From a virus: a DNA stretch of 41,883 nt. Both the position numbers and the translations under genes were made by a program. The first letter of the stretch is position 1; every line of letters begins with the position of its first letter. Of this stretch, positions 255-41,120 are shown piece after piece. Below the pieces are notes generated by a model. The model saw only the letters and a program-made list of their open reading frames with translations, ran no database searches and was not told where the DNA came from. The DNA lies in the IMG/VR virus record IMGVR_UViG_3300046492_000081; one strand, 5' to 3'.

Positions 255-272
255 TCTAGTGAGTCGAAGGCC
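255..272 (-). promoter_or_regulatory. Phage promoter-like motif, copy 1 (variant GGCCTTCGACTCACTAGA), upstream of the exonuclease gene
   Basis: Matches the 12-copy family. It sits 38 nt upstream of ATG 224 in gene orientation. Confidence 0.5.
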
Positions 273-276
273 CGTG

Positions 277-367
277 TGTAGGAATGTAGGAACTGAACCA
301 GGTCCCGGAATCTCTATAGAAACCCTTAGTGATTATCGAGAGTGGTGCAGAAACTACATTCCTACAT
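277..367. repeat. 91-bp inverted-repeat regulatory cassette A; paralogue at 24358-24448
   Basis: The arms are TGTAGGAATGTAG (277-289) and CTACATTCCTACA (354-366). The 61-bp core matches cassette B with no indels, roughly 48/61 by eye. Confidence 0.8.
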
Positions 368-449
368 TTTGGCTGGTCAGGGGTTCAGCGCTGTGGGGTT
401 GGCGTTCCACCTCCTACATGCGGCGCTGTACGCCCCTCAGACGGCATGA

Positions 450-485
450 GAAAGCCCCGTCCGACCACTGGGGCCAGACGGGGCT
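450..485 (-). terminator. Stem-loop terminator candidate at the end of the late operon
   Basis: AGCCCCGTC (453-461) pairs with GACGGGGCT (477-485). In minus sense the stem is followed by UUUCUC. It lies just after the stop of 507..728. Confidence 0.55.
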
Positions 486-506
486 AGAAGGCGCTCAGAC
501 AGGCGC

Positions 507-728
507 TCAGGGCTCCACAGGGATAACCACAGCCCCCCGGGCCACCCGTGCCGTTGCTCCTTCCGTGCTGCCACAGGGCACAGCGTCACAGACCATCAGG
601 CCACCAGGCAGCGGGCAACTGGGGTCATGGAACAGCGTGCGCGTGGTCTCATCCACCTTCATCAGCCTCATGGGCCGGACGTACCGGCAGACATGACACA
701 TGGTGGGCTGGTCTTCGTTCGCGGTCAT
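507..728 (-). CDS. Hypothetical Cys-rich 73-aa protein
   Basis: ATG 728 has a GGGGGAA SD. Contains CxxC plus three further Cys. GC3-rich. The longer ORF-track version reads through regulatory motifs. Confidence 0.6.
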   Translation of the reverse strand: MTANEDQPTMCHVCRYVRPMRLMKVDETTRTLFHDPSCPLPGGLMVCDAVPCGSTEGATARVARGAVVIPVEP

Positions 729-738
729 AACGTTCCCC

Positions 739-755
739 CTAGGGAGTCGAATGCC
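739..755 (-). promoter_or_regulatory. Phage promoter-like motif, copy 2
   Basis: GGCATTCGACTCCCTAG in gene sense, with the ATG at 728 beginning 17 nt after TTCGAC. Confidence 0.55.
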
Positions 756-778
756 ACTTACGGATTTTCGGAGGTGAC
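754..778. repeat. SD/anti-SD palindrome, copy a (imperfect)
   Basis: CCACTTACG GATTTT CGGAGGTGAC; abuts promoter motif copy 2. Confidence 0.7.
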
Positions 779-834
779 AACGCGGGAAGGCCCCGGGTCC
801 TGGGGGAACCTGGGGCCTTCCGGTCTGTGGTGTC

Positions 835-2169
835 TTACAGCGTGGCGGCAATCATGGCCGTGATGGCCTTCTTGGCCTCTTCCAGCTTCTTGCGCGCCGC
901 TTCCTTCGTGGCGTCCGTGGCGTTCTCGAAGTCATCCGGGTTGCCAGTCCCAATGTCCTTGAGGAGCTTGTCAGCCAGCTTCGTCACGCGCTCATCCGGC
1001 GTGGTGGTGTCCGCCGTGGTCTCGCCAGCGCCCTCCCCTTCGCCTTCGCCGCCCTCACCGGCACCCTCACCGGCACCACCAGCGGCCTCAAGCTCCTTGG
1101 CCTTCTGCTTTTCCTGGTAGGCAAGGCGCTTGCGCTCAGACTGACCGATGGTCGACGTGCCGTACGCCTTAGCGACGAACTCAGACGCGGGGACATCTTC
1201 CGGCTTGCCCTCAAGCACCTTCGCCACCCGGGCCCGGCGCTCCGCTGCCTCTTCCGTGTCCTCATCCAGCGACCGAAGCCACGCGGCACGGACGTCAGAG
1301 CGGTAGTCCTGAACCGAGCGCGTCAGCTTCTTGAGCGCCTGCTCATTGTCCCAGGTGTGTTCGAAGCCCTCACCGGCCATCTTGATGAGCGCCGTGCCTG
1401 CCTTCTTGGCAGCGTCCGAAGCAACCATCAGGTCAGGGTTGTCATCCTTGTTGGGGATGCGAGTGACCATGTCGAAGGCGACGGCCGCAACTTCCATGGC
1501 CACGTTGGAAGCCTTGAGGTTCAGGCGGACGCCCTCAGCCAGCTTCTCAGCGCCCATGGCTGCAAGCTCCTGAGTGCCTTCGTACTGGTCCCACGCCTTC
1601 TGAACAACCACGCCCTCAGCCGCCTTCTTGGCAACCTCCTTGGCCTTCGGCTTCTCAACCAGGGTGGCGGCTTCGGCCCACTGGTTGCGCTTCTCCTTCT
1701 TGGCCTTGATGGAGTCCTTGCCGCTCAGCGCGCTGATGATGGTCTCCGTCTCCTCCTTCAACTCCGCCAGCCCCTCAACGTTCTCCGCCTCAGCCAGAGA
1801 CCGGGCACGCTCAATGTTGGCGTCAATCTGCTCAAGGGCAGCCTTGCCATCCTCCGTGTTGACGTCCAGCTTCGCGGCGGTCTTCTCAGCCATGGTCTCT
1901 CCCGTGTTTCCGTTGGTGTTGCTGACAGACGGAACATTAGCAGACTCCGGGGCGTCCGTGTCTGCCACTTCCGAATTTTCGTAGGTGGTCTCTTCGGCAG
2001 CCTTCGCCAGCGCCTTGAGGCAGTTCGCGCAGTTCACGTCACCGCGCACTTCCCGGTAGCCCTCAGCCGCGCGGTTGCCGCCACAGATGGGAAGGGACAT
2101 GTAACCCTGGTGCTTCCGGGCCGCGTGAATCTTGCCGGTCCTGAGCTGAATGTTGACCATGGTGTCCAT
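835..2169 (-). CDS. Hypothetical 444-aa acidic, helical protein with an N-terminal Cys-rich motif; possible nested in-frame isoform from ATG 1893
   Basis: ATG 2169 follows a GAAGGGGCGGGG SD. N-terminus has C..C...CxxC; there is a Gly/Glu/Ala low-complexity tract near the C-terminus. A second strong SD (GGGAGAG) precedes the in-frame ATG at 1893. Confidence 0.75.
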   Translation of the reverse strand: MDTMVNIQLRTGKIHAARKHQGYMSLPICGGNRAAEGYREVRGDVNCANCLKALAKAAEETTYENSEVADTDAPESANVPSVSNTNGNTGETMAEKTAAKLDVNTEDGKAALEQIDANIERARSLAEAENVEGLAELKEETETIISALSGKDSIKAKKEKRNQWAEAATLVEKPKAKEVAKKAAEGVVVQKAWDQYEGTQELAAMGAEKLAEGVRLNLKASNVAMEVAAVAFDMVTRIPNKDDNPDLMVASDAAKKAGTALIKMAGEGFEHTWDNEQALKKLTRSVQDYRSDVRAAWLRSLDEDTEEAAERRARVAKVLEGKPEDVPASEFVAKAYGTSTIGQSERKRLAYQEKQKAKELEAAGGAGEGAGEGGEGEGEGAGETTADTTTPDERVTKLADKLLKDIGTGNPDDFENATDATKEAARKKLEEAKKAITAMIAATL

Positions 2170-2210
2170 GTCCCCGCCCCTTCGTTGTGTGCTTGCGTGA
2201 TCAGTATGGG

Positions 2211-2244
2211 GGGTGTCGGGACCTGGTTGCAAGTCCCGACACCC
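2211..2244 (-). terminator. 12-bp GC stem-loop without a U tail (attenuator or RNA-stability hairpin candidate)
   Basis: GGGTGTCGGGAC-N10-GTCCCGACACCC, immediately after palindrome b. Confidence 0.35.
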
Positions 2245-2265
2245 TACGGATTTTCGGAGGTGGTC
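2240..2265. repeat. SD/anti-SD palindrome, copy b (imperfect)
   Basis: CACCCTACG GATTTT CGGAGGTGGTC; overlaps the stop codon of 2264..2689. Confidence 0.7.
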
Positions 2266-2689
2266 AGGCGGCTTCGTTCCAACGCCGGTTCAGCGCCCAG
2301 TCAGAGAACACAGCGCCAACGTGGTACTGCCCGTACGAAGAGCCCTTGCCGTCGCTCACCTGAATGTACGCCGTGCCGTGCGTGTTGGTCCTGACCTCAA
2401 CGGTCAGCCCGAACTCATACGCCTGAGCCACAACCGCTGCCAGGCGCTCAGCCGGTACGTCCCGGTACTCAAGGCCCGAAGGACCACCCCCGCGCGCCGT
2501 GTAGACCTCACCCAGGTCAACCGTGACCTTGCCCATGTCAGTGCCCTTTCCGTGGAAGGCTGCCCAGCACTCAGCGGACTTGAGCGCCATGCCAGCCGTG
2601 TAGTAGCCCGGGGTGGCGAACAGGATGCGGTCACCTTCGCGGACCTGACCGAAGTGCTTGCCGCTGTTCTCCGTGACCGTGATGTTCAT
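2264..2689 (-). CDS. Hypothetical 141-aa protein
   Basis: ATG 2689 with an AAGGAG SD 9 nt upstream. GC3-rich. Confidence 0.65.
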   Translation of the reverse strand: MNITVTENSGKHFGQVREGDRILFATPGYYTAGMALKSAECWAAFHGKGTDMGKVTVDLGEVYTARGGGPSGLEYRDVPAERLAAVVAQAYEFGLTVEVRTNTHGTAYIQVSDGKGSSYGQYHVGAVFSDWALNRRWNEAA

Positions 2690-2757
2690 CCTGACCGCTC
2701 CTTCGTTGCTGTTGTTGTGTGCCCAGCTAAGCGCATGCCGCACCCCCGGCGCAACCC

Positions 2758-2783
2758 CCACCTACGATTTTTCGGAGGTGACC
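2758..2783. repeat. SD/anti-SD palindrome, copy c
   Basis: CCACCTACG ATTTTT CGGAGGTGAC. Confidence 0.7.
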
Positions 2784-2835
2784 CAACGCAAAAAGCCCCC
2801 CAGCAAGCCGGTCAGGGCTCACCAGGGGGCTTCGT

Positions 2836-3393
2836 TCAGCGCTGTCTCACAAGGAGATCAGTCACCGTGTGCAGATCAAAGACGCTGCCGCCGTTGATCA
2901 GGGTCTCATCCGCCGGGAAGGCGTTCAGATCGTTCTCACTGTCGTGTGTGTCAGTGCTCACAAGGTCAGGGCGCTTGATGCGGACCAGGATGAAGCCAGC
3001 CGCCTTGAGCGCTTCGGCTTCGTTCCCGTACCGGCAGTCAGTCACCACAACCGGCATGTTCCATCCGTCGGCAGCGCTGACCTTCTCCATCAGCACGCGC
3101 ACCCAGAAGTCAGGGTCAAGCTCACGCACGGTCTGACCCATGTGTTGGAGCGTCCGGCGGACTTCCGGGTAATTCTCCTTCGCGTAGTCCCAACCAACGT
3201 CAGCAATCAGGGACTCAAGCCGGACGCTGACGCCATAGCCGGTAGGGATGTACGGATTGACTTGCAGCGCCATCCGCTTGAGCGGGTCAGCGAACGCAAG
3301 CCGGGTAAATGCCCAGCGCTGGACCAGCCGCAAACCGGCCGTGTCCTTTCCGCTACGGGCCTTACCGATAAAGGCAATGTTCTGGTAGCTCAT
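2836..3393 (-). CDS. Deoxynucleoside monophosphate kinase-like P-loop protein
   Basis: N-terminal Walker A motif IGKARSGKD. Size and layout are typical of phage dNMP kinases. ATG 3393 follows a GGAGAGAG SD. Confidence 0.65.
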   Translation of the reverse strand: MSYQNIAFIGKARSGKDTAGLRLVQRWAFTRLAFADPLKRMALQVNPYIPTGYGVSVRLESLIADVGWDYAKENYPEVRRTLQHMGQTVRELDPDFWVRVLMEKVSAADGWNMPVVVTDCRYGNEAEALKAAGFILVRIKRPDLVSTDTHDSENDLNAFPADETLINGGSVFDLHTVTDLLVRQR

Positions 3394-3398
3394 ATTCA

Positions 3399-3433
3399 CT
3401 CTCTCCGTCCGGGGATTGCCCTTCGGGAGAGAG
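3399..3433 (-). promoter_or_regulatory. Hairpin sequestering the SD of 2836..3393
   Basis: In mRNA sense, CUCUCUCC (3433-3426) pairs with the SD GGAGAGAG (3406-3399), enclosing a 19-nt loop. Confidence 0.4.
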
Positions 3434-3450
3434 TGAGTGAGTCGAATGCC
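3431..3450 (-). promoter_or_regulatory. Phage promoter-like motif, copy 3
   Basis: GGCATTCGACTCACTCACTC in gene sense; overlaps the stop codon of 3450..3638. Confidence 0.55.
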
Positions 3451-3638
3451 TAGCCCCCTAGGAACACCTTGCAGGCGTCAAGAAGGGCATCAGCCGGGAA
3501 GCCAGGCACATAGCGCGACGCTAGCGGGATCACCACTATTGCCACGCCGTACAGCTTCCGCCGGTTAGCGACGAACCAGGACACTGCCCGGCTTACCTTG
3601 TCCAGCCACCCGGCATCAGGCGTGCTGTGATCACCCAT
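3450..3638 (-). CDS. Small membrane protein (holin-like, in the lysis cassette)
   Basis: 62 aa with one hydrophobic helix (LYGVAIVVIPLA). The SD GGAGGTGG is supplied by palindrome d. Confidence 0.6.
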   Translation of the reverse strand: MGDHSTPDAGWLDKVSRAVSWFVANRRKLYGVAIVVIPLASRYVPGFPADALLDACKVFLGG

Positions 3639-3639
3639 G

Positions 3640-3664
3640 GACCACCTCCGAAAAATCGTATGTA
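3640..3664. repeat. SD/anti-SD palindrome, copy d (degenerate anti-SD arm; the SD arm serves as the RBS of 3450..3638)
   Basis: GACCACCTCCG AAAAAT CGTATGTA on the plus strand. Confidence 0.65.
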
Positions 3665-3706
3665 CAGAGAGTCACGGCCGGCAAAACGCTCCGTGATAAT
3701 TGCAGG

Positions 3707-3949
3707 TCAGCGGGTCAGGAACGGGACGACTACGCCAACCAGGGCCCCTAGGGTCGCTGCCACGCCGGACGCACGCCACACCCGCTGTTCTAGCGAAGTG
3801 ACGCGCTCTTCCAGTGCTTCTAGCTCTTCCCGGGTGTCATCAAGCGATAGGCGCTCATCTAGCCGGATCACGGCATCAGAAAGCCGCCTCAGTTCGTCGT
3901 AAATCTCACGACTGGACACCCACGCGCCCCCACTTTCAGGCGTAGTCAT
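3707..3949 (-). CDS. Small membrane protein with a coiled-coil N-terminus and a C-terminal TM helix (holin or lysis accessory)
   Basis: 80 aa with C-terminal GVAATLGALVGVVVPFL. Lies directly downstream of the lysin. Confidence 0.6.
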   Translation of the reverse strand: MTTPESGGAWVSSREIYDELRRLSDAVIRLDERLSLDDTREELEALEERVTSLEQRVWRASGVAATLGALVGVVVPFLTR

Positions 3950-3958
3950 CGGGGCCCC

Positions 3959-4735
3959 TTACGGCTTGACGTTGAATCCATGCTTAGCGCCTAGGCGCGT
4001 CAGCGAAGTGGTGCCCGGAATACCGTCAGCATCCTTGCCGCTGTACCCCATTGCCTTCTGGTGCTTCTTGTACGCCTCAATGGTGGTGGTCCCGTAAGAC
4101 CCGTCACCGGCATACTTCGCGGCTAGGTAACCCTCAGCCTTGAGCGCCGCCTCAACTAGCTTCACGCCAGCCGCATAGGTCTGGTGCCCCTGAGCGGCCT
4201 TCGGGTCCAGCTTCGCGGCCTTGATGACCTCAGAGAGATCAACCGTGGGCTTAGCCGGGACAGCCGCCTTCTTGTACGCCGGACGGCCGAAGCCAAGGAT
4301 GACGTTCCGGCCACGCGTGCGCCGGTAGCAACCATCCCCGTTGCCCTGAGAACCGGCAGTGCCCGAAGACGTGTTGCCCTCAATGGTCTTAACGTCAGCA
4401 CCAGCCGCAGCATCAGCCGTGACTACGCCAACATGGTCAGCGACCGGGCCACCGTCCCAGGTGAAAAAGACAATGTCACCCTTCTTGACCGCGCTGCCCT
4501 TGCTGACCCACTGGCCACGCGCCTTGAACCAGTTCACATGCGACGGGCAGTAGGCGAAGTGACCGACAACATCAGCGTTGCCCGACTGGTCACCCCACAG
4601 CGAAACGGCCATGTCACACCACGGCTGGTGGTTCATGCCGTACCACTTGCCATGCTTCGTGTCGTTGTTCGCCCCTTCCTTGTAACCAACATCCTTGGAA
4701 GCGGCGGCAATCATCGCGTCAGCGGTAGAAGCCAT
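3959..4735 (-). CDS. Endolysin: N-terminal CHAP-like amidase/peptidase plus C-terminal peptidoglycan-binding domain
   Basis: Cys/His signature (QPWCDMAVS ... DHVGVV). C-terminal PG_binding_1-like segment (YGTTTIEAYKKHQKAMGYSGKDADGIPG). ATG 4735 follows a GAAGGGAAAA SD. Confidence 0.8.
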   Translation of the reverse strand: MASTADAMIAAASKDVGYKEGANNDTKHGKWYGMNHQPWCDMAVSLWGDQSGNADVVGHFAYCPSHVNWFKARGQWVSKGSAVKKGDIVFFTWDGGPVADHVGVVTADAAAGADVKTIEGNTSSGTAGSQGNGDGCYRRTRGRNVILGFGRPAYKKAAVPAKPTVDLSEVIKAAKLDPKAAQGHQTYAAGVKLVEAALKAEGYLAAKYAGDGSYGTTTIEAYKKHQKAMGYSGKDADGIPGTTSLTRLGAKHGFNVKP

Positions 4736-4786
4736 GGTTTTCCCTTCGATAGAAGACAGTCCCCCAGTAGTAACTAGGGAGTGGAA

Positions 4787-4814
4787 AGCCCCCGGGACCA
4801 GGTCCACGGGGGCT
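4787..4814 (-). terminator. GC-rich hairpin plus UUUCC tail between the tail genes and the lysis cassette
   Basis: AGCCCCCG...CGGGGGCT with an inner GGACC/GGTCC pairing. Confidence 0.45.
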
Positions 4815-4815
4815 A

Positions 4816-4840
4816 TCACTTACGGATTTTCGGAAGTGCC
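4816..4840. repeat. SD/anti-SD palindrome, copy e (imperfect)
   Basis: TCACTTACG GATTTT CGGAAGTGCC; touches the stop codon of 4840..5451. Confidence 0.7.
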
Positions 4841-5451
4841 TACAGGGACGTGAAGCACCCGTTAAAGCCAACCCATGCAGGCGTTGACTTCGTCTGGATG
4901 CCGTACAGGCGGAGGTATCCGGTAGTGGTGATGTCCATCTTGAGCGTGATTCGCTCCGACCCGGAGTCAGAGCACGGGACAGAGATAGTCCGCAGAGAAG
5001 CCGGGCGGGCAGTCGTCGGCAGCGCCGTGGTGTTCAGCTCAAAGTAAGACGGCAGCGAAGTGGGGTAAGAGCTACGGCTGATGCCGCCACGAAACATAAT
5101 CGTGTCTTCGCCGTACATGTTCACAACGCGGTACTGAAAGGTGCCCTGTGAGTTGCCGTTGTTGGTCCAGCCGGACGCTAGGCCAATGCTCTTCCACGTG
5201 TTCGTTCCGTACCCGAAGGCCACCCACGCCGTACCGTCGTACACGTCCAGCCGCCCAATGTCCTTGAGCCACGTCACCATTCCGGCAACCGGCTTCTTGA
5301 CAGTGGCACCACGGACCACAGCGGAAGCGAAGGTCATCACAACCTTCGGGGTAAGCCCGTCAACAATGCCCTGCCCCAGGGTCTGAGCGTTGGGCTTGTC
5401 AGTCAGGGTGGGGTACGTAACGCCCTGCCCGTAGGAGTCAGTTAGCGGCAT
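4840..5451 (-). CDS. Minor tail protein
   Basis: 203 aa in the tail-tip gene block. AAGGAGA SD. Confidence 0.65.
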   Translation of the reverse strand: MPLTDSYGQGVTYPTLTDKPNAQTLGQGIVDGLTPKVVMTFASAVVRGATVKKPVAGMVTWLKDIGRLDVYDGTAWVAFGYGTNTWKSIGLASGWTNNGNSQGTFQYRVVNMYGEDTIMFRGGISRSSYPTSLPSYFELNTTALPTTARPASLRTISVPCSDSGSERITLKMDITTTGYLRLYGIQTKSTPAWVGFNGCFTSL

Positions 5452-29230: not shown

Positions 29231-29240
29231 GATCTCTCCC

Positions 29241-31726: not shown

Positions 31727-31734
31727 AACAGTCA

Positions 31735-32117: not shown

Positions 32118-32141
32118 TGAAAAACTCCTTTGTTTCGGTCT

Positions 32142-32418: not shown

Positions 32419-33345
32419 TTACTTGCGTCCACCACGGCCAAGGTTGATGGCGGCAGCCTCAGTGAGTTCCTTCGCCTCAACCTCATCCTTGGCAACGGCC
32501 TTGATGTACCGCTTCGCGAACGCCTTGTGACCCTTCACGCGGGCATCACGCGCCGGGATGATGTCCAGACCCAACGCGGCAGCCAGCCCGGGAAGGTCAC
32601 CAGCGTCCCCCGTGCCGTAGCACTGCACATCACCAATGCCGTACGAGAGACGAAGGGCGTTGGCCTGGTTGTCGCTCATGGTGGCAAGGATGGCGTTCAC
32701 AATGGCGTGCTTCTGCCGCCGCTCTTCGCTGGTGATGTCCTCAGCGGTGACCAGGTCATCCGGCACACCCAGGGAAGAGGCAAGCCCCTCAGCCAGGCTG
32801 TAAGACGCCTGGTAGTCCCCCTGAGACACGGAACCGGCAGACGGGCCATCCACGGTCACAGCCGGGGCGTCAAGGCTTGCAGCGCCCTGCCACGCCATCC
32901 GGGCTGCCTGTGCACGGTCCGCGCTGAGTCGACGTCCCTTCGGGGGCACGGTCTGAGCGAACTTCTCGGCAAGGTAGACATCCCCGTCAGCCTTCTCAAG
33001 CATGGACGCGAACACCTTCAAGGCGTCTTCGTCAGCGCCCTGGTTGCGGGCTTCCCGGACCTTGTCCTTGAGCGCGTTCTCAATGGTTGCCCACATGAAC
33101 GCGTAGAAGGCATCCACGGTGTCACCCTCGAAGCGGGGCAGGGCTTCGAACATGGCAAGCGCGCCGTCCTGCCGGAAGTCTTCCCGGAAGTCCTCAAAGC
33201 GCATCCCGTTCTGAGTCATGCGACGGGCGGCAGCGTCAGCCAGCTTCTCAATGCGGCCGGTCATGGCTTCGTTGACAGCCTCAAGCCCGGCAAAGCCGTT
33301 CGTCTGAGCGTCAGCGATCAGGGCAAGGGTCAGGGTCTCGGTCAT
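32419..33345 (-). CDS. ECF-like RNA polymerase sigma factor candidate (308 aa)
   Basis: Region-2-like DFRQDGALAMFEALPRFEGDTVDAFYAFMWATIENALKD. Region-4-like MSDNQANALRLSYGIG...LAAALGLD...ARDARVKGHKAF. ATG 33345 follows a GGAAGGAAA SD. Confidence 0.6.
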   Translation of the reverse strand: MTETLTLALIADAQTNGFAGLEAVNEAMTGRIEKLADAAARRMTQNGMRFEDFREDFRQDGALAMFEALPRFEGDTVDAFYAFMWATIENALKDKVREARNQGADEDALKVFASMLEKADGDVYLAEKFAQTVPPKGRRLSADRAQAARMAWQGAASLDAPAVTVDGPSAGSVSQGDYQASYSLAEGLASSLGVPDDLVTAEDITSEERRQKHAIVNAILATMSDNQANALRLSYGIGDVQCYGTGDAGDLPGLAAALGLDIIPARDARVKGHKAFAKRYIKAVAKDEVEAKELTEAAAINLGRGGRK

Positions 33346-33380
33346 GGCTGGTGTTTCCTTCCGGTTGCTCACTCGGGTTT

Positions 33381-33399
33381 GAGTGAGTGAGTCGAATGC
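33381..33399 (-). promoter_or_regulatory. Phage promoter-like motif, copy 7, upstream of the sigma gene
   Basis: GCATTCGACTCACTCACTC followed by the hairpin CTCACTC-N6-GAGTGAG. Confidence 0.55.
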
Positions 33400-33803
33400 T
33401 CGGAAGGGGCCTGACCGGGTACCGGATCTCATGTGACGTGGGGCACACCCTGTTTTAGGCATGGGGGTGCCGCAGTAGGTCACGTGGGAGACAGAGCGGG
33501 TTAGACCCCTTGAGCGGGGTTCCGCTTGTCCGAAGATCCGGCCGGGCGCTTCGGCTTTGCTGGTCCTGAGTACATACGTTTTTGCGTAGGTCCGCAACGC
33601 CGTTGCGCGCTGAACCAACTGCTAGACCTGGGGCCGGGCCGAACGGTTGCACGTCGATTCGAAGGCGTAACCAGGCTCATCCCTTGGATGTACCGGTTTG
33701 GCATATGCACGGGGTGCAAAGATCCTTCGTTACATAGGCAACGGTCCTTAGTTGCACCGTCAGGCAACCGACCTAAAGAATCTTGGAAACTTTGCCTCCG
33801 GTA

Positions 33804-33828
33804 CCACCTCCGAAAATCCGGAGGTGAC
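33804..33828. repeat. SD/anti-SD palindrome, copy n (perfect)
   Basis: CCACCTCCG AAAATC CGGAGGTGAC. Confidence 0.75.
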
Positions 33829-33877
33829 CGCCCGTGAACCAGCCAGCCACAGGCGGTCACCATGGGTGTGACCGGGG

Positions 33878-35782
33878 TTACACGTCAGCGCCGTACAGGC
33901 TGCCCCATGAGCGCTTCCCAATCTCAGCCTCAGCCGTAATGGGCACCCCGAACAGGTCGAAGGTCATGCACTCCTGAATGGTGGCGGCAATGTCCGTTGC
34001 TTCCGCCTTCGGGACACTTGCAAGCACTTCGTCATGAATCGGCAGGCGGAGGTACGGCAACATGCCGCGCTCTTCCAGCGTGATCAGACTCTGTCCCAGA
34101 CAGTCACGGGCAACGGACTGGCAGGCGTAGTTCACCACGGCGTACATGCGCTCACGGTCCAGCGGAAGGCGACGGCCCGTAACGCTCAGGTGGACCATGC
34201 CAGTCTCGTGAGCTTCGCGCTGCCAGCGGTTAGACATGCGCTTGATTTCAGGGAACACGCGGTCATACTCAGCGAACGTCCGGCGCATGTCTTCCGGGTC
34301 AGCTCCGGTCTGCCGGGCAACGCCCTTGTACCCACCCCCGTAGACCTTGCCGAAGCCAGCGCCCTTGAACATCTTGCGGTCAGCCTTCGTGGCACCAGGG
34401 CCCTTGACCAGACGCGCCGTGTACATGTGGATGTCAAACCCGTTCGGGTATTCATCCTTCGGGTACGCGTCCGCGTTCTGAAACCCGTGCTTCATCCGCT
34501 TCACGTCAGCCAGCGCGGCAAGGACACGCATCTCAACGGCACTGAAGTCAGTGGACACCATGACGTGTCCCTCTTCGGCCATCAGCGCACGCCGGATCAT
34601 GTAGTCACCAGACGGCAGCGTTTGAAGCGCCGGACGGGTCACGCTCATACGTCCCGTGCGCGCCTGCATGCTGTTGATGAACGGGTGAATCCGGCCGTCA
34701 GAGTCCATCGTTTCAAGGAAGGTGCCCGTGTAGGCAGAGCGCCACTTACCGGCACGCTTGCTCTTGATGATGGCTTCGGCAAGGGGGTTGGGCTTGCGCC
34801 GGTTCATGCGCTCACCAGACTGGAAGTCAAGGTCAGCGAAGCGGTGCAACACAGCCTTGTCTACCTTGAGCGCCCCGGTTGCCGTCAGCTCATCCGGCTG
34901 CCACTCCTCCCCCATGCCCGCAAGGGCTTCCCGGAGCTGTGCAGGAGCGTTCACGTTGGTCACCCCGTAGCGGAGCGCCTTAGCTTCGAACACGGCTGCC
35001 TCTTCGGCAAGTTGAGCGTCAAGCCCCTTCGTGTACGGCACGTCAAGGACCATGCCCGTTCGCTGCATGATGGCGCAGATACGGGCTATCTCGTGTTCGT
35101 ACTGAATCAGCCGGGGGCGCACTTCCAACATGTCAAGCTCACGGTCAAGACAGGAGTCAAGCCGGGCAGCAAAGATGGGGTCAAGTCCCGCGTACAGAAG
35201 GTAAGTCGGGTGCCACAGGTCGATACCCGCCCACCCGGTTGCCTTCGTGAGCTTGAGCGACCGGAAGACGGCCGTCAGGTCTCCCTGAGTGTCCGGGGCC
35301 TTCGGGTCCACGTACCACGCCATGAGGGGTTTGAGGGCAGTGCCCCGCCCACCTTCCTGGGGCTGCCGGGGGTCGACTAGACCGGCCTTGAGACGCGTGT
35401 CAATGGTCTTCGGTGCCATGGCCTCAATGGAGCCGTTGAAGCCGTCCCCGGACGCGTGCCGGTCAATCACAGCCCAGTCAAAGGGCGCGTTGTGAATCTG
35501 AAACTTCGTGATGAAGTCAAGGGCACGCCGGGCGTAGTGCTGGAAGTAGCCACCCAGTTCCCACAGGATCACCCACCCGGTATGCCGGTCACCAAACTGG
35601 ACCGTGCGAAGCCGGTAGGTGGGGCTGTAGATGTCAAGCCCCGTGGTCTCCGTGTCCAGCGCAATGGGGCCACGCTTGTTGGCCTCAACAACCCAGCGCT
35701 TGAACTCCTCAAGGTCATCAAGGTTCTCAGGCACCTTGACAGTCACCGGGTCACCGGCAATGGCGTAAGGGAACGTCTTCAT
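33878..35782 (-). CDS. Family A DNA polymerase with a 3'-5' exonuclease domain
   Basis: Exo motif DTETTGL. Pol motifs DFSAVEMRVLA, RKMFKGAGFGKVYGGG and PIHDEV. ATG 35782 follows a GGGAGGAGAG SD. Confidence 0.9.
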   Translation of the reverse strand: MKTFPYAIAGDPVTVKVPENLDDLEEFKRWVVEANKRGPIALDTETTGLDIYSPTYRLRTVQFGDRHTGWVILWELGGYFQHYARRALDFITKFQIHNAPFDWAVIDRHASGDGFNGSIEAMAPKTIDTRLKAGLVDPRQPQEGGRGTALKPLMAWYVDPKAPDTQGDLTAVFRSLKLTKATGWAGIDLWHPTYLLYAGLDPIFAARLDSCLDRELDMLEVRPRLIQYEHEIARICAIMQRTGMVLDVPYTKGLDAQLAEEAAVFEAKALRYGVTNVNAPAQLREALAGMGEEWQPDELTATGALKVDKAVLHRFADLDFQSGERMNRRKPNPLAEAIIKSKRAGKWRSAYTGTFLETMDSDGRIHPFINSMQARTGRMSVTRPALQTLPSGDYMIRRALMAEEGHVMVSTDFSAVEMRVLAALADVKRMKHGFQNADAYPKDEYPNGFDIHMYTARLVKGPGATKADRKMFKGAGFGKVYGGGYKGVARQTGADPEDMRRTFAEYDRVFPEIKRMSNRWQREAHETGMVHLSVTGRRLPLDRERMYAVVNYACQSVARDCLGQSLITLEERGMLPYLRLPIHDEVLASVPKAEATDIAATIQECMTFDLFGVPITAEAEIGKRSWGSLYGADV

Positions 35783-35805
35783 TGGGTCTCTCCTCCCACG
35801 CAAAA

Positions 35806-35836
35806 GGGCCACCTCCGAAAATCCGGAAGTGACCCC
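35806..35836. repeat. SD/anti-SD palindrome, copy o, between promoter copy 8 and the polymerase SD
   Basis: GGGCCACCTCCG AAAATC CGGAAGTGACCCC. Confidence 0.75.
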
Positions 35837-35854
35837 ATGCGGTATGCGGTTGTG

Positions 35855-38290
35855 TCAGTCCTGAGCGAAGATGCCCGGACCCGTCTTCGAAGTGGCGCTA
35901 GGGAGTCGAATGCCTACCAGGGCCATCCCCTTAGCCGTACGCGTGCGAGTGATGCCGCGCTCTTCCATGGCCCCGTAGAACGCGCGACGGGTCCAACGCT
36001 CCTTGGCAGGCAGGTTCTCAGCCTCACACCAGTCAAGGTAAGCGTTGAACGCTTCGCCACCATCCATGCGGGCAGAGTCATCCGCCACCAGGACACCCGG
36101 GAAGAAACCCGCCAGCGCGTCACTGGTCTCCTTGTACTCCTTCGTGGCAGCGCTGATGCTGGCAGGGTCTTGCAGCCCGTCACGGAACCACTCAACAGCC
36201 CCACGGACAGCCCACGCGGCAATACCCTTCGCTTCGGCTTCCAGCTTCTTGTCAAGGCTGTAGTCCCGCTCATGCGGAGCAAAGAACCGGGTAAAGGGAA
36301 TCATCTTGACGCGTCGCCAGAGACCTTCGTCCTGACCCCGGAACTTCGGCTTATGGTTCGTCGCCAGCATGAGCAGAAACGAAGGCTTGAATTCGAAGAA
36401 CTCTTGCCGAAGGAACCGGGCGGCAATCATGTCCTTGCCCGTGACACGCTTGAGCACAGCCTCAGACATGGGCTTGCCGGACTCACCCTCAGACGCCATC
36501 ACCAGGCGGCTACCGCGCAAGGCGGCAATGTCGTTAGGGATGCCGCCATTCGCCTTCTCTTCGAACGTGGCAAAGGGCGTGGTCTTGCTGATGGTCCGGA
36601 ACACACTGGACAGCGTGTCAGTCAGGACACTCTTGCCGTTCGCACCCTTCCCCCACAGCACACAGAAACACTGCTCATCCGTGTAGCCCGTGATGCCGTA
36701 GCCAATGATGCGCTGCATGTACGGCACAAGGTCAGGGTTGTCCGGGAAGACCTCAGTCATGAACTGTTCCCAGCGGGGGCAGGTGGCAGCCGGGTCATAC
36801 TCGATGTCAAGGCAGTACGTCAACATGTCAGCCTTGTCATGCGCCCGGAGCTTCCCAGTGCGAAGGTTCACGGTGCCGTTGCGGAAGCTCAGAAGGTGCG
36901 GCCGGTTGTCGAAGTCAGACGCCTCAACGTAGACCGTGGGGACCGAACGAAGCTCAGTCATCAGGTCATTGATGCGCGTGGTCATGGTGAACCCACGGGC
37001 TTCCTTGACCTTGCCAGCCAGCACCAGGGCAGCGCCCATGCGGTGAATCTCCTGACGCACCTTGACCTCAGAACGGGACCAGGTACGGCCGTTCCACACG
37101 TAGAAACCCAGACCAGGCGCGAACTTGATACGGCCATCGGACCAGGCAACCAGCGCGTGAGCGTTCATGGCGTCCGTGTCGCCGTAGCGCTCAAGGAGAC
37201 CAGCCAGGATGCGGGCAGCCTCATTGCCCTGGTCCCGGCTGACAATGTCCGCCCCGGTCGCTTCGCTCAACTCTTCGCTGACGGCTTCCCGTTGGGCCTC
37301 TTCCGGCTTCGCTACCGGCTTCGCAGACTTCACGGCCTTGTGCAGAGCCAGCGCAAACGCCATGGGGGCAGACTCGCGCCACTCAGTCAGGTCCGTCTTC
37401 GGCCCCAGCTTCGGAATGGGCAGCGCGTAGACCGGGATGCCGTACGCCTTGAGCCCTTCGGCAAGCGCCATGTTGAAGCCCTGCCCGGCAGAGTCCACAT
37501 CACCACACGCAATGACCTGTGAGCCCTTGAGACCAGCGGCAAGCTCAGCCAGAAGGTCAGGGTTGGACACCAGGGCAGCGCCCCGGACCATCACCACGTC
37601 ATACCCCACGGAAACCGCTGTAAGCCCGTCTCCGGGCCCCTCAGTGACCAGGGTGACCCCGTAGCCGCCCTGACCCCGGAACACGCCGTACGGGGACCAG
37701 CGGAAGCCTTCCGGGTTGCGCAGAGACAGCCAACGCCCCGGGCACTCCCCCGTGATGTCACGCCCCTGCAAGCCACGCGGCATACCGACGAAGTCACACA
37801 GCGGAACAGTCACCCGGGGGAACGCCTTGAAGGAGCGCGTCAGGTACGGGAAGGGGTCATTCACATCCGGCCCGTCATACCCGATACCCAGTTCATACGC
37901 CGTGTCAGCGTCCATGCCGAAGCGGTCAGCAAGGTAGTCCCGGGCACGCTCCTGCCACTCCCCCTCTTCGGGCAGCCGGTCACGCGCGTCATCAACGTAG
38001 CCAGCAAGGGCGGCAGTCTGAGCAACACCCACAATGGCGGGCTTCTCCTTCGGGACCGTAGCGCCCTCACCATCAGCGTTGAACAGGTCCGGCCACGTCA
38101 GGCCAGCCGCCTTGACCACGTCACCCGTGGGGCAGCCGACACGGCACGTGATGCGGACCTTGTTGTCATCCCCACGCCAGATACGTAGCGACGGGTCAGA
38201 GTCTCCGTGCGACGGGCACAGGGTGATGTACCCGCCGTCTTCGTGCTCACTCACACCTTCGAAGTGGTCCAGCAACTCAACGAACAGCAC
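35855..38290 (-). CDS. Bifunctional DNA primase/helicase (CHC2 Zn-finger, Toprim and SF3/D5-type NTPase)
   Basis: CPSHGDSDPS...CRVGC, Toprim acidic motifs, Walker A GKGANGKS. GTG start at 38290 follows an AGGAAGG SD. Confidence 0.85.
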   Translation of the reverse strand: MLFVELLDHFEGVSEHEDGGYITLCPSHGDSDPSLRIWRGDDNKVRITCRVGCPTGDVVKAAGLTWPDLFNADGEGATVPKEKPAIVGVAQTAALAGYVDDARDRLPEEGEWQERARDYLADRFGMDADTAYELGIGYDGPDVNDPFPYLTRSFKAFPRVTVPLCDFVGMPRGLQGRDITGECPGRWLSLRNPEGFRWSPYGVFRGQGGYGVTLVTEGPGDGLTAVSVGYDVVMVRGAALVSNPDLLAELAAGLKGSQVIACGDVDSAGQGFNMALAEGLKAYGIPVYALPIPKLGPKTDLTEWRESAPMAFALALHKAVKSAKPVAKPEEAQREAVSEELSEATGADIVSRDQGNEAARILAGLLERYGDTDAMNAHALVAWSDGRIKFAPGLGFYVWNGRTWSRSEVKVRQEIHRMGAALVLAGKVKEARGFTMTTRINDLMTELRSVPTVYVEASDFDNRPHLLSFRNGTVNLRTGKLRAHDKADMLTYCLDIEYDPAATCPRWEQFMTEVFPDNPDLVPYMQRIIGYGITGYTDEQCFCVLWGKGANGKSVLTDTLSSVFRTISKTTPFATFEEKANGGIPNDIAALRGSRLVMASEGESGKPMSEAVLKRVTGKDMIAARFLRQEFFEFKPSFLLMLATNHKPKFRGQDEGLWRRVKMIPFTRFFAPHERDYSLDKKLEAEAKGIAAWAVRGAVEWFRDGLQDPASISAATKEYKETSDALAGFFPGVLVADDSARMDGGEAFNAYLDWCEAENLPAKERWTRRAFYGAMEERGITRTRTAKGMALVGIRLPSATSKTGPGIFAQD
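35885..35914 (-). promoter_or_regulatory. Phage promoter-like motif, copy 8 (full 30-nt form), inside the 3' end of the primase gene
   Basis: GGCATTCGAC-N12-CTTCGAAG. Confidence 0.6.
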
Positions 38291-38309
38291 TGTTCAGCCT
38301 TCCTGTTGT

Positions 38310-38339
38310 CTTCGAAGGGATGTGAGTGAGTCGAATGCC
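38310..38339 (-). promoter_or_regulatory. Phage promoter-like motif, copy 9 (full 30-nt form), upstream of the primase gene
   Basis: GGCATTCGAC-N12-CTTCGAAG, then 9 nt to the SD. Confidence 0.6.
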
Positions 38340-38345
38340 TGCCCC

Positions 38346-38792
38346 TCAGAACGGGTAGCCGGAACCGGCTGCAAGCCCGGGGTCAGGGCCAAACGTCAGC
38401 GACCACTCAGCAAGGGTCTTCGCGCCCTTGCTCAGGTTGCATCGCTGGCACGCGGGCACAATGTTGGACTCAACGTCAGCCCCTCCCTTGCTCAGGGGCT
38501 CAACGTGGTCAAGGTGCGTGGCGTGGTCACCGCAGTAGGCACACGCGTACTTCCAGCGGGCAAGGATGGCTGTGCGGCTGTACGCCACATGTTCCACCCC
38601 GTAGGACTCTGCCCGGCGCTTGTGCGTGATCTCATGGCGCTTGTCAGGGCTCAGCCGGGCGTAATAGCCCTTGATGTGCTGACGCTGACGGTTGCGGCGG
38701 CATGAGGCACAGGCGCTAGACGGCTTCTTGGCCTTCCCAGCTAGGAAAGACTCAGCGGGCTTCCCCCGCCCGCATAGTCGACAGACTTTCAC
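38346..38792 (-). CDS. HNH endonuclease (148 aa)
   Basis: CAYCGDHATHLDHVEPLSKGG...NIVPACQRCNLSK; paralogous to 32155..32418. Confidence 0.85.
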   Translation of the reverse strand: MKVCRLCGRGKPAESFLAGKAKKPSSACASCRRNRQRQHIKGYYARLSPDKRHEITHKRRAESYGVEHVAYSRTAILARWKYACAYCGDHATHLDHVEPLSKGGADVESNIVPACQRCNLSKGAKTLAEWSLTFGPDPGLAAGSGYPF

Positions 38793-38908
38793 CAGACCCC
38801 CAATGCGAAGCCAAGGAACCAGCCCAGTGCAAACCCCAGGGGCTGAATGAGAATGCAGACGAACAGTTGAAGCGGACGGACACGAACCGGCTTACGCCTG
38901 TGGCTCAT
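38789..38908 (-). CDS. Possible 39-aa membrane peptide, below the ORF-track cutoff
   Basis: MSHRRKPVRVRPLQLFVCILIQPLGFALGWFLGFALGVW. The start lies inside the upstream gene's 3' end. GTGA overlap with the HNH start. Confidence 0.35.
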   Translation of the reverse strand: MSHRRKPVRVRPLQLFVCILIQPLGFALGWFLGFALGVW

Positions 38909-39074
38909 GAACCCACCTGACATCAGCGCCACGGGTCACAGCCACGAAGAGGGCATCCGCGTAACGGGCCCAATCCTTACGGGAGTTGACACCCGGGCGA
39001 AGCCAAATGGTCACCCCTTCGGACGCTGCCCGCACGTCCCCAATGGCAGGGGCAGAGTCAGGAGACAGGATCAC
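38892..39074 (-). CDS. Hypothetical 60-aa protein
   Basis: GTG start at 39074 uses the SD arm of palindrome p. GTGA overlap with the upstream stop codon. Confidence 0.55.
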   Translation of the reverse strand: MILSPDSAPAIGDVRAASEGVTIWLRPGVNSRKDWARYADALFVAVTRGADVRWVHEPQA

Positions 39075-39388
39075 TCGCCCACCTCCGGATTTTCGGAAGT
39101 GACCTCAACGAAGTTCGGAGTCACCAGGCGCACATGTTCCGTGGTAATCCACTGAGCGGCAGCCGTCTTGCGCTTCACAAAGCCGGACTCAATCCCAGTG
39201 GGCTGAACCTTGAGCACGGGCACCAACACAGCGCCTACGCCCTCAACTTGAGCCTGTTTGGCAGTGGCCTCAAGGACCACAGCGTCAGCCATCCTGACCC
39301 GGTTCCCCTGACGTGCCGAGTAGGCCACCAGGTCCCCGGGGTGTAGTTCGTTGCCCGCGTAATCCGTGACAACGCCACGCTTAGCCAT
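39071..39388 (-). CDS. Hypothetical 105-aa protein
   Basis: TAGGAGG SD. The C-terminal codons read through palindrome p. Confidence 0.6.
   Translation of the reverse strand: MAKRGVVTDYAGNELHPGDLVAYSARQGNRVRMADAVVLEATAKQAQVEGVGAVLVPVLKVQPTGIESGFVKRKTAAAQWITTEHVRLVTPNFVEVTSENPEVGE
39078..39104. repeat. SD/anti-SD palindrome, copy p (inside the coding 3' end; its SD arm is the RBS of the next gene)
   Basis: CCCACCTCCG GATTTT CGGAAGTGACC. Confidence 0.75.
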
Positions 39389-39453
39389 GTCAGTACCTCC
39401 TAACGCCTCAAGCCCCGCACCCAGTGCATGAGCACCAGGGGCGGGGCAAGGGG

Positions 39454-39708
39454 TCAGGCAGTGAACTCAGGCAGCGTCTCAGTCTGGGGCTCAGGCGTGC
39501 GCTCATCCTCGTACACGCTGATGAGCTTGACCGGTCCCGTGGTGTCCAGCTTCCGGGCCTCAACGTTCCGACCCTTGCCAGACGACTTCACGCCGGGCAG
39601 GTGGTCAACGGACTTCCGGGCAAGGTCGACGCCGGGCGCAATCACCACAGCGGACACGAACTCACCAGGCTGGACAGCGTCAGTGCGGGAAACTTCGTAG
39701 ATGGCCAT
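39454..39708 (-). CDS. Hypothetical 84-aa protein
   Basis: AGGAGAG SD. Confidence 0.6.
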   Translation of the reverse strand: MAIYEVSRTDAVQPGEFVSAVVIAPGVDLARKSVDHLPGVKSSGKGRNVEARKLDTTGPVKLISVYEDERTPEPQTETLPEFTA

Positions 39709-39720
39709 GCGTGTTCTCTC

Positions 39721-39888
39721 CTAGGAGTATTCGGGGTCGCCGGTAGGTTCGTCATCCATTTGGAAGCGTCTACGGCGTTCGTGAATTACAGCCTTCGCGG
39801 CTTCGGGCGGGAATGACCACAGGGGCTGACGAACAGTCTCGTCATCAGCCCCCGCCAGCACAGCCGCCCAATTGATGGGCTCAGTCAC
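39721..39888 (-). CDS. Possible 55-aa ORF, below the ORF-track cutoff
   Basis: GTG start at 39888, 2 nt after the upstream TAG. 56 codons. Weak SD. Confidence 0.35.
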   Translation of the reverse strand: MTEPINWAAVLAGADDETVRQPLWSFPPEAAKAVIHERRRRFQMDDEPTGDPEYS

Positions 39889-39890
39889 GA

Positions 39891-40592
39891 CTACCGCTCT
39901 TCGGCAATCGCGTCAGCGTAGGAACCCAGCACGGTCATGACCGGCTTCTTGTACTTGACCAGCTCACCGTCATCCGTGGTGAACTCCTCCTGCACAATCT
40001 CAACGCGCACCAGGGCCTCACCCTCAATGCCGTCAAGGGCTTCCTTGACCTCATGCACGGTCTCAGCGAACTGCCACGCCGTAGCAATCCAACGGCCCAC
40101 ACCCAGTTCGTAGCCCAGACCGGCAAGGCGGAAGGTGACCACCACGTTCGGACCAGGGGCCTTGCCCGCGCGGCTCTTCGCCTTGCGCTCCTTGAGAGTG
40201 CCAGTGCAGCCGCACAGCTCACCACGGTCATCCGGCATCAGGGAGCGGACACCATCACACTCATGGATGGGAAGGCCGTTCGGACCCCACTGCATGAACT
40301 TGTCCTCAATGGCGTCAGCGCCGGTAAGCACAAGCTCAACGACAGAAGCGTCAGTCAGGATCTCAAAGTCATGCTCCTTCTCCGGGAACTTGAGCGCCGG
40401 GGTTCCACCCATCAGCTCTGCAATGCCCTTCGCCGTGTCCTCACCGGCTGCCAGTACGCGCCACTTGCCGAGAGAGACCGGCTTGCGCTTCGCATTCTGC
40501 ATGCCAGTGCGGAACTGGTAGGCGTACTCAGGGCGGGCAAACTTCGCCTCGCGCTCTTCGCGCTCCGGGTCGTGAAAGATGCTCTTGTCCAT
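39891..40592 (-). CDS. Hypothetical 233-aa protein; possible recombination or DNA-binding partner of the exonuclease
   Basis: The function is suggested only by its position near the PD-(D/E)XK exonuclease. Contains a CDG...CGC cluster. Confidence 0.6.
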   Translation of the reverse strand: MDKSIFHDPEREEREAKFARPEYAYQFRTGMQNAKRKPVSLGKWRVLAAGEDTAKGIAELMGGTPALKFPEKEHDFEILTDASVVELVLTGADAIEDKFMQWGPNGLPIHECDGVRSLMPDDRGELCGCTGTLKERKAKSRAGKAPGPNVVVTFRLAGLGYELGVGRWIATAWQFAETVHEVKEALDGIEGEALVRVEIVQEEFTTDDGELVKYKKPVMTVLGSYADAIAEER

Positions 40593-40685
40593 GCGGGATC
40601 TCCCCTACTTCGAATGTCTGCGAATCTCAGGGGGAAGGGCGGGAATTTCTCGGCCCTGTGGCCGGTTCTGAAACCGCCGTTCCCC

Positions 40686-40715
40686 CTTCGAAGCTGGTCT
40701 AGGGGGTCGAATGCC
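40686..40715 (-). promoter_or_regulatory. Phage promoter-like motif, copy 10 (full 30-nt form)
   Basis: GGCATTCGACCCCCTAGACCAGCTTCGAAG. Confidence 0.6.
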
Positions 40716-40753
40716 AGCCCCTAGCCGCTGTGTTTCTCGCCTTACAAACGGGG

Positions 40754-40771
40754 TCTAGAGAGTCGAATGCC
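40754..40771 (-). promoter_or_regulatory. Phage promoter-like motif, copy 11 (tandem with copy 10, 56 bp apart)
   Basis: GGCATTCGACTCTCTAGA. Confidence 0.5.
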
Positions 40772-40839
40772 AGCGCCGTAGGCAGGGCCAGAACGCAGAA
40801 AAGCCCCCCAGTCCGTGAGGACCAGGGGGCTTCGCTGTA

Positions 40840-41067
40840 CTACTTCGTGGCAGCCTTCGCGGAGCTGGTAGCCGGGAACACCAGAAGGTATGCCAGGAAC
40901 ACCAGCCAGCCGGACGCGCTGTAGGACAGTGCCGGGATGGCAGGGGCCGCGTTGTGCAGCGCACCAGCAACCAGCATCACGGCCCATGTCTGCAAGCTCA
41001 GCAGGAGCATCGTGCCAAGGAAGAACACGACGAACGCGGCGTAGGCGGCTTTGTTGTCAGCCTTCAA
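40840..41067 (-). CDS. Small membrane protein (75 aa, two TM helices)
   Basis: TTG start at 41067 follows an AAGGAGAG SD. Contains two hydrophobic stretches. Confidence 0.6.
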   Translation of the reverse strand: MKADNKAAYAAFVVFFLGTMLLLSLQTWAVMLVAGALHNAAPAIPALSYSASGWLVFLAYLLVFPATSSAKAATK

Positions 41068-41090
41068 GGGGGTCTCTCCTTTGTTGGGGT

Positions 41091-41120
41091 CTTCGAAGCT
41101 GGTCTAGGGGGTCGAATGCC
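41091..41120 (-). promoter_or_regulatory. Phage promoter-like motif, copy 12 (full 30-nt form; identical to copy 10)
   Basis: GGCATTCGACCCCCTAGACCAGCTTCGAAG; overlaps the exonuclease stop codon. Confidence 0.6.

Follow-up and report, generated by a model that had tools for sequence, protein, structure and literature searches.

The stretch of DNA analyzed here, hereafter the window, is the complete 41,883 nucleotides of the IMG/VR virus record IMGVR_UViG_3300046492_000081, in which a short, strand-specific sequence motif recurs in front of genes. All genes of the window lie on the minus strand, in the order terminase to lysin, dNMP kinase, repressor c homologue, exonuclease, primase, DNA polymerase I, a sigma-like gene, small genes, serine integrase, six tRNAs and HNH genes. 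This order continues across the ends of the window, which is therefore a complete, circularly permuted genome of a phiC31-like siphophage. The nearest deposited phage is Streptomyces phage Rowa (83% identity in the early region), and an IMG/VR contig was found that encodes a sigma protein identical to that of the window. Open reading frames (ORFs) of more than 450 aa were all assigned (tape measure, primase, Pol I, terminase, portal, a capsid-module and a tail-module protein). No gene for a single-subunit RNA polymerase was present among these large ORFs or in the Rowa annotation.

The word GCATTCGAC occurred 12 times in the window, always on the minus (gene) strand, against an expectation of 0.33. 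When both strands were scanned with a 17-column weight matrix, 13 full copies of the form GGCATTCGAC-TCMCTAG were identified, all on the gene strand and none antisense. They scored between 22.9 and 30.1 (18 to 29.6 in leave-one-out), and the scores were cleanly bimodal, with a next-best value of 10.4 for a half-copy in the tape-measure gene (at 12134), a top antisense score of 10.5 and a mean maximum of 11 in Markov-simulated genomes. A sequence-only reading of the same DNA had listed 12 copies, all of which were recovered, but the list was incomplete: a thirteenth, at 4774-4790, was found by mismatch search and by the matrix scan. The copy that had been placed at 255-272 exists, but is the variant GGCCTTCGACTCACTAG at 256-272. 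Orientation was as described before, since all 13 copies are in the sense of the genes, and antisense or intragenic copies were not equally frequent in the exhaustive scan (13 hits with at least 22.9, the rest with 10.5 or less).

As described earlier, each of the 13 copies is followed by a start codon or by the tRNA array, and 4 of them overlap the 3' end of the preceding ORF (those at 3450, 41120, 32171 and 35914). Copy 1, the degenerate GGCTTTCCACTCCCTAG (4760-4790 on the minus strand, like all following copies; core 4774-4790; score 22.9), stands 55 nt 5' of the lysin start and is the copy missed earlier; the same variant occupies the same place in Rowa. Copy 2 (3420-3450) precedes the dNMP kinase gene and has a CGAAGG box at motif positions 26-31. 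Copy 3 (725-755) lies 3' of the repressor gene, with an operator palindrome adjoining upstream and an ATG that begins at motif position 28. Copy 4, the variant GGCCTTCGAC (242-272), and copy 13 (24297-24327), which heads the six-tRNA array, each follow a duplicated AT-rich block. Copy 5 (41090-41120) contains CTTCGAAG and overlaps the stop codon of the exonuclease gene, whereas copies 6 (40741-40771) and 7 (40685-40715) form a tandem pair 5' of a gene starting at 40592, with a terminator-like hairpin just upstream of the first; such hairpins sit directly 5' of several copies. The identity of copies 5 and 7 over 30 nt (41091-41120 and 40686-40715), reported in the sequence-only reading, was confirmed. 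Copy 8 (38309-38339) precedes the primase gene, copy 9 (35884-35914) the DNA polymerase gene from within the 3' end of the primase ORF, and copy 10 (33370-33400), of the form AGCATTCGAC, the sigma gene. Copy 11 (32141-32171) overlaps the stop codon of an HNH gene. Copy 12 (26385-26415), also AGCATTCGAC, is located at the integrase gene, the ATG of which starts at motif position 27 (window position 26389) without a Shine-Dalgarno sequence (SD). No intergenic copy had been seen before in the terminase-to-lysin block; copy 1 sits at its lysin edge, and no further full copy was found in the block. The bare GGCATTCGAC noted earlier in the tape-measure gene (12125-12134, minus strand) is indeed present, but lacks the second half of the motif and was therefore not counted as a family member (score 10.4).

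A fixed 30-nt layout, GGCATTCGAC-N12-CTTCGAAG, had been proposed for five copies. The count is correct (5 against 0 expected), but a different description, applicable to most copies, fits better: a 17-bp block GG-CATT-CGACTCMCT-AG, 8 variable nucleotides, and a Y-G-A-A-R box at positions 26-30. The information content has its main peak at positions 1-17 and a weaker second peak at 24-31. No conserved sequence was detected at -45 to -1 relative to the 17-bp block. In the window, most start codons follow motif position 1 at 48-55 nt. In the early region (24000-41883 and 1-5200), no sigma-70 consensus promoters were found against 2.7 expected, in agreement with the earlier remark that hexamers of the TTGACA/TAnnnT type are absent, and a canonical sigma-70 promoter reading of the motif was rejected for lack of consensus matches.

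The early promoters of phiC31 were reportedly mapped experimentally by Ingham and co-workers in 1993, with conserved sequences of about 20 bp found 5' of early genes, and are said to have been treated by Smith and co-workers in 1999 as well. The GenBank records AJ006589 and X76288 contain no promoter features. We found that phiC31 carries CCGGGTTGCCGACTCCCTTAC on the gene strand 5' of gp46, gp52, gp1, gp2, gp3, gp9a, gp11, gp12, gp13, gp25 and tRNA, and that its most over-represented strand-specific word, GGGTTGCCGACTCCCTTAC, is found 5' of these same genes. We take the CCGGGTTGCCGACTCCCTTAC sequences to be the 'novel early promoters' of Ingham and co-workers. No copy of GCATTCGAC was present at a comparable position in phiC31. 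When the motifs of window and phiC31 were aligned on CGAC, G1, G2 and C7-T15 were common to both, while positions 3-6 differed (CATT in the window, TTGC in phiC31), as did the 3' end (CTAG or CTCA versus CTTAC).

Discovery of strand-biased 9-mers in relatives was swamped by coding k-mers, and a core-anchored search was used instead. Strand-specific GG-N4-CGACTCCCT motifs were present at syntenic positions in each of phiC31, phiBT1, Vash and TG1, and read GTCACCGACTCCCTT in phiBT1 and Vash and GTCGCCGACTCCCTT in TG1. About 15 relatives among prophages and IMG/VR entries also have the frame GG-N4-CGACTC-N-CT, in which N4 depends on the lineage (GGCAAT-, GGCCAT-, GGCGAT-, GGGGGT- or GGTAAC-CGACTC). 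The more distant Sebastisaurus, Nesbitt and Attoomi have different motifs at the same positions. In Rowa, all syntenic positions are occupied by the window's version, the unusual GGCTTTCCAC copy before the lysin gene among them. Copies 5' of dNMP kinase, exonuclease, primase, DNA polymerase, the gp12 homologue and tRNA are common to window, Rowa and phiC31. The phages phiC31 and phiBT1 have annotated hosts of the S. lividans/coelicolor type and the same operator, yet their N4 is TTGC and TCAC, respectively, indicating that the motif follows the phage and not the host.

The parallel with phiC31 drawn in the sequence-only reading thus holds as a sequence relationship, as the comparison with phages of the phiC31/phiBT1 type revealed a common core, the GG at positions 1-2 and syntenic positions. 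Strand bias and Y-G-A-A-R at positions 26-30 are further likenesses; HrdB-like hexamers are absent, and the genome context agrees, with a gp12-type sigma factor (E 1e-51), a repressor c homologue (835-2232; Pfam Phage_Repressor_c at 4e-72) and a 14-copy palindromic operator. Unlike the window, in which the tail-gene block has no copy, phiC31 has a copy before gp46 in this block, and the operator sequences are unrelated (CACCTCCGAAAATCCGGAGGTG in the window, CCTACTCACGTGAGTAGG in phiC31). On sequence grounds, the motif can be assigned as the Rowa-clade version of the phiC31 early-promoter family, with a lineage-specific sequence, and as such is an expected feature of a phiC31-like phage. In the phiC31 clade (L002 12978 and 40569, with equivalents in L009, L010 and L012), the copies before gp46 and tRNA also share a downstream CATATAGGTAGGGGGT, and copies of this type may form a late subclass of the same promoter family. 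The tail of the window's tRNA copy, ATACATCTTGAGGGCAGGGG, is similar, first AT-rich and then G-rich.

The proposed reader of the motif is encoded at 32419-33345 on the minus strand (308 aa; product 32422-33345). The product matched Pfam Sigma70_r2 (28.3 bits, cut-off 24) and the PHROG 'RNA polymerase sigma factor' (E 1e-108), is 35% identical to phiC31 gp12 (E 1e-51), and is part of a large protein family of phages and prophages of Streptomyces. An AlphaFold model (pLDDT 81) predicted two helical domains and a disordered linker (residues 157-190), that is, a sigma2-linker-sigma4 fold. The top Foldseek hits in the PDB were all sigma factors (SigB, SigA and sigma S), aligned over 280-310 columns and thus nearly full length, with TM-scores that were low (0.25-0.35) because the domain arrangement differs. 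Domain and PHROG matches, predicted fold and gp12 homology therefore agree that the specificity factor suspected earlier is a sigma protein.

The sigma gene was present in every relative, with a motif copy about 55 nt upstream. The N-terminal half of the protein was conserved across clades, whereas the C-terminal region-4-like domain was more variable. Only four alignment columns separated the sigma proteins of CATT-type phages from those of CAAT-type phages. Three of these are in region 4 (N226, R232 and T/Y245), with N226 and R232 in region 4.1. Lineage L024, which has CATT promoters, combines a region 4 that is CAAT-like overall with N226 and R232. The pattern is suggestive of covariation, in which region 4 residues would match motif positions 3-6. 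K-mer surveys did not reveal another candidate promoter family for the phage sigma. Most likely, the motif is read by the phage's own sigma factor. To our knowledge, the reader of the phiC31 early promoters has never been shown experimentally.

The putative transcription start was considered on the basis of non-identical copies pooled from the Rowa-like clade (62) and the phiC31-like clade (59). Position 26 was a pyrimidine in 57/62 and 47/59 copies, respectively, and position 27 a G in 50/62 and 41/59 (and a purine in 58/59 of the phiC31-like copies). Positions 28-29 were mostly A, and positions 18-25 were variable and different between the two clades. As Y-G-A-A-R is conserved in both clades, CTTCGAAG is the strongest form of a family-wide box, which reads CGAAG in 6 of the 13 window copies. 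Within the window, 11 of the 13 copies have a pyrimidine-purine step at positions 26/27 (p = 1.3e-5), and no other position between 18 and 44 stands out.

Across the family, the spacing between motif position 1 and the start codon peaked at 50-59 nt (60/108 cases), with small clusters at 26-28 and 38-39 nt. Genes of the 38-39 cluster have a strong SD at positions 27-34 (GAAGGAGGG, AAAGGGG, TAGGGGG), which should therefore be transcribed, placing the start at or before position 27. The integrases of window and Vash are 58% identical from residue 1, and each gene lies behind the motif variant of its own phage (AGCATTCGACTCACTC in the window, CGTCACCGACTCCCTT in Vash). In both, the integrase ATG is exactly at motif position 27 and has no SD (26387-26389 in the window, L010 29905-29907 in Vash). 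The deposited Vash annotation starts the integrase 14 codons further downstream, and an alternative in-frame start that has an SD exists further upstream in both phages. DNA-level conservation of CAGGTCAGCGG 5' of int extends even to phages whose integrases are unrelated. An ATG at positions 27-29 is found in three further genes. The pyrimidine-purine step, the integrase ATGs without SD and the SDs at 27-34 together point to a transcription start at motif position 27, which would place the 17-bp block at about -26 to -10. The integrase mRNA is then predicted to be leaderless in both window and Vash.

A second feature was found at the sigma gene itself. Directly 5' of its motif copy, 9-18 nt are complementary to the SD of this gene. 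In the window, the anti-SD CCCCTTCCG (33401-33409, minus strand), directly 5' of copy 10, pairs with the SD CGGAAGG (33357-33363, minus strand). The pairing covaries across about 20 lineages (loci L002-L038), for example CCTTCCGG with CCGGAAGG, CCCTCCGG with CCGGAGGG, CCCTAGGTC with GACCTAGGG, GTCTCCCT with AGGGAGAC and CTCCTTCGG with CCGAAGGAG. The sigma leaders were assessed by per-sequence folds and by duplex energies compared with shuffles, since a MAFFT alignment takes no account of structure and yielded none with RNAalifold. The outer anti-SD/SD stem was present in the minimum-energy folds of the read-through leader in most lineages, and the duplex energy was better than that of shuffles (p < 0.05) in 18 of 25 lineages. 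An RNA that starts between the two arms of the hairpin would free the SD of the sigma gene, which fits a 5' end at the motif, by initiation and by cleavage alike. We know of no description of a sigma promoter inside an SD-sequestering hairpin for this phage family. An inner hairpin in the sigma leader, CTCACTC/GAGTGAG, covaries as well. In the dNMP kinase leader (3400-3436), as in Rowa, a pairing is possible between TCACTCTCTCC, at motif positions 15-25, and the SD-covering GGAGAGAGTGA. A non-coding gap of about 480 nt (33400-33878) separates the DNA polymerase and sigma genes and contains several blocks conserved across 8 lineages. Gaps of similar size are found in phiC31, TG1, Vash, Nesbitt and Attoomi. 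The gap has no Rfam match, and may be a structured RNA, a replication origin or a regulatory region.

The motif statistics, the strand and position bias, the family-wide conservation, the fold and homology of the sigma protein and the covariation are directly supported by the data, while promoter activity, the start site and the link between sigma factor and motif are inferred. We consider it probable that the 13 copies are promoters specific to the phage, which represent the phiC31 early-promoter family in the Rowa clade and work as follows. Host core RNA polymerase, together with the phage sigma-70-family factor (the gp12 homologue), would bind the 17-bp block and start at the purine in position 27, so that the block would lie at about -26 to -10 and no -35 hexamer would be used. 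The core CGACTCMCT would serve the whole family, while the lineage-specific tetranucleotide at positions 3-6 probably sets which sigma is accepted. Most genes would receive leaders of 22-30 nt, and the integrase and a few small genes would be leaderless. As the copy of the sigma gene is inside the anti-SD/SD hairpin, only transcripts started at the motif would be translated efficiently.

Several points weigh against this reading. The covariation of sigma and motif is confounded by shared ancestry, as the compared lineages are not independent. The gp12-type sigma could serve late promoters instead. In the usual sigma-70 geometry, region 4 contacts the -35 element, which is at odds with a -26 to -10 block that region 4 helps to read; the model accounts neither for the role of the highly conserved CGACTCMCT core nor for the apparent involvement of region 4 so near the start. 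Because the sigma gene has a motif copy in front of it and read-through RNA keeps its SD occluded, the first sigma needs another route; a host-type promoter for this purpose was not found in 24000-41883 and 1-5200. Finally, in three copies the ATG at positions 27-29 comes with a good SD at 17-23, which would fit a start near position 17. A start at 17-19 was ranked below 27, as it would leave the Y-G-A-A-R box and the integrase ATGs without SD unexplained.

A more elaborate version of the same proposal, which we put forward only tentatively and would not expect to hold in full, is that a sigma-70-family phage sigma reads a contiguous element at about -26 to -10, without a -35 box and with a geometry closer to that of sigma-54 than to that of sigma-70, and that a 4-bp address at positions 3-6 is matched by region 4.1 residues. 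The result would be orthogonal sigma/promoter pairs (CATT, CAAT, CCAT, CGAT, TTGC, TCAC, TCGC and others) and, through the anti-SD hairpin lock, a self-reinforcing lytic switch.

Alternatively, the same phage sigma could read a conventional two-box promoter, with GGCATTCG (positions 3-8) as a -35 element for region 4, CGAAGR (26-31) as -10 and a start at about 37-38. The gap between the two boxes is 17 nt, the variable N4 falls into the -35 hexamer, and the class-specific residues of the sigma are in region 4.1, where N226 aligns with R554 of E. coli sigma-70 in our own alignment. The Y-G-A-A-R box and the N-terminal half of the sigma are both conserved in the two clades, and five genes starting at positions 39-42 would be leaderless. 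However, the most conserved part of the motif, CGACTCMCT, would then be a spacer, genes with start codons at 27-29 (including the integrase in two clades) would begin 5' of their transcript, and the strong SDs at 27-34 in short-leader genes (GGAGG, AAGGGG) imply transcription of this segment. Moreover, just 6 of the 13 window copies have CGAAG. We therefore regard the two-box promoter as rather unlikely.

The question of how the first sigma is made would not arise if the 17-bp block were the site of a phage activator, or were matched by a host alternative sigma, with the host holoenzyme transcribing and the gp12-type sigma acting elsewhere, for example on late genes. The MotA boxes of T4 are activator sites at which the host holoenzyme transcribes, and sigma factors made from early genes to drive later classes are usual in SPO1 and T4. 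The TAG at positions 15-17 is similar to the first half of TAGRRT, the -10 consensus of Streptomyces HrdB, but is missing from the phiC31 clade. The N4 differs between phages of the same host, the copy on the tRNA/late side has the same block, and the k-mer surveys left the phage sigma with no other promoter family, all of which makes this account unlikely as well.

It is very improbable that the motif acts in RNA, as a site at which an endoribonuclease or another RNA-binding factor cuts polycistronic early RNA 5' of each gene. In favor of it, the motif is confined to the sense strand and keeps a fixed distance to start codons, a cut between anti-SD and SD would also switch on translation of the sigma, and processed and primary ends are indistinguishable by S1-type mapping. 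On the other hand, copies follow terminator-like hairpins, behind which read-through RNA should be scarce, and the tRNA array is headed by one copy. The motif itself shows no conserved RNA structure, and a co-evolving sigma factor is present but no dedicated RNase candidate. Promoters at the DNA level are preferred to RNA sites because of the position after terminator-like hairpins and at the head of the tRNA array, because the variant follows the phage and not the host or gene, and because no sigma-70 consensus promoter is available. A promoter for a T7-like single-subunit RNA polymerase, suggested by the contiguous block of about 17 bp and by CGACTCACTA in copies 4 and 13 (256-272 and 24311-24327), which equals 10 nt of the T7 class III consensus TAATACGACTCACTATAG, is effectively refuted by the lack of such a polymerase gene in the window and in the Rowa annotation, and the likeness is probably coincidence.

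As phage-specific promoters, the motif copies have partial counterparts in other systems. In the sigma cascades of SPO1 (gp28, gp33/34) and T4 (gp55), a phage sigma-family protein likewise sends the host core polymerase to promoters unlike those of the host. In T4, late promoters likewise consist of a single block and lack a -35 element, and in the T4 genes e and soc a late promoter lies within a hairpin that occludes the ribosome-binding site, as at the sigma gene of the window. Unlike in these cascades, the window motif precedes early genes and the sigma gene itself, its 17-bp block is further upstream of the predicted start, and the sequences are not similar. With a start at position 27, the geometry would also resemble that of sigma-54 promoters (-24/-12), as GG would be about 25-26 nt before the start, a conserved C(T) about 12-13 nt before it and a -35 element absent, and nGGCAT is reminiscent of TGGCA(C). 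However, the motif lacks the -12 GC (TCMCT, with MC at positions 13-14), the phage factor is of the sigma-70 family, and the phiC31-clade variants are unlike TGGCAC. A promoter of the sigma-54 type, defined by GG-N10-GC and a sigma-54 protein, was rejected on these grounds. The start-associated sequences of Cluster K mycobacteriophages, reportedly described by Pope and co-workers in 2011, are also conserved, multicopy sense-strand motifs 5' of many phage genes, but they include the SD and are only 3-8 bp away from the start codon, whereas the window motif is about 50 nt upstream and does not.

Two other repeated elements were observed beside the motif. A 22-bp imperfect palindrome, CAC[CT]TCCGAAAATCCG[GT]A[GA]GTG, has 14 copies on both strands throughout the genome, mostly at gene ends (first bases of the 12-nt core at 772, 2258, 4834, 9448, 13396, 16661, 20410, 23426, 29030, 29931, 31704, 33809, 35814 and 39097). 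Two of them abut the promoter copies at 755 and 4790. As the palindrome is the positional counterpart of the phiC31 CIR operator CCTACTCACGTGAGTAGG, it is presumably bound by the repressor c homologue (835-2232). The box CTTCGAAG resembles half of this palindrome, but is out of register by one base and at most a candidate half-site for the repressor. In addition, an AT-rich block of about 115 bp is duplicated 5' of the copies at 272 and 24327 (about 273-400 and 24328-24470, minus strand). The block contains an inverted TGTAGGAATGTAG / CTACATTCCTACA, is found at both places in Rowa too, and could be a control region or an entry site for host polymerase.

Together with its relatives, the window predicts that a gp12-type sigma is the reader of the motif, that transcription starts at motif position 27 and that positions 3-6 confer specificity, and the question of what reads the phiC31 early promoters thereby becomes testable. 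If the more elaborate version of the proposal also held, sigma genes that are locked by a hairpin, with sigma made from motif-initiated transcripts only, would constitute a self-reinforcing lytic switch, and mutually orthogonal sigma/promoter pairs would exist as a natural set in the phages and prophages of Streptomyces. For this industrially important genus, a series of natural sigma/promoter variants active in its members could provide orthogonal expression switches.

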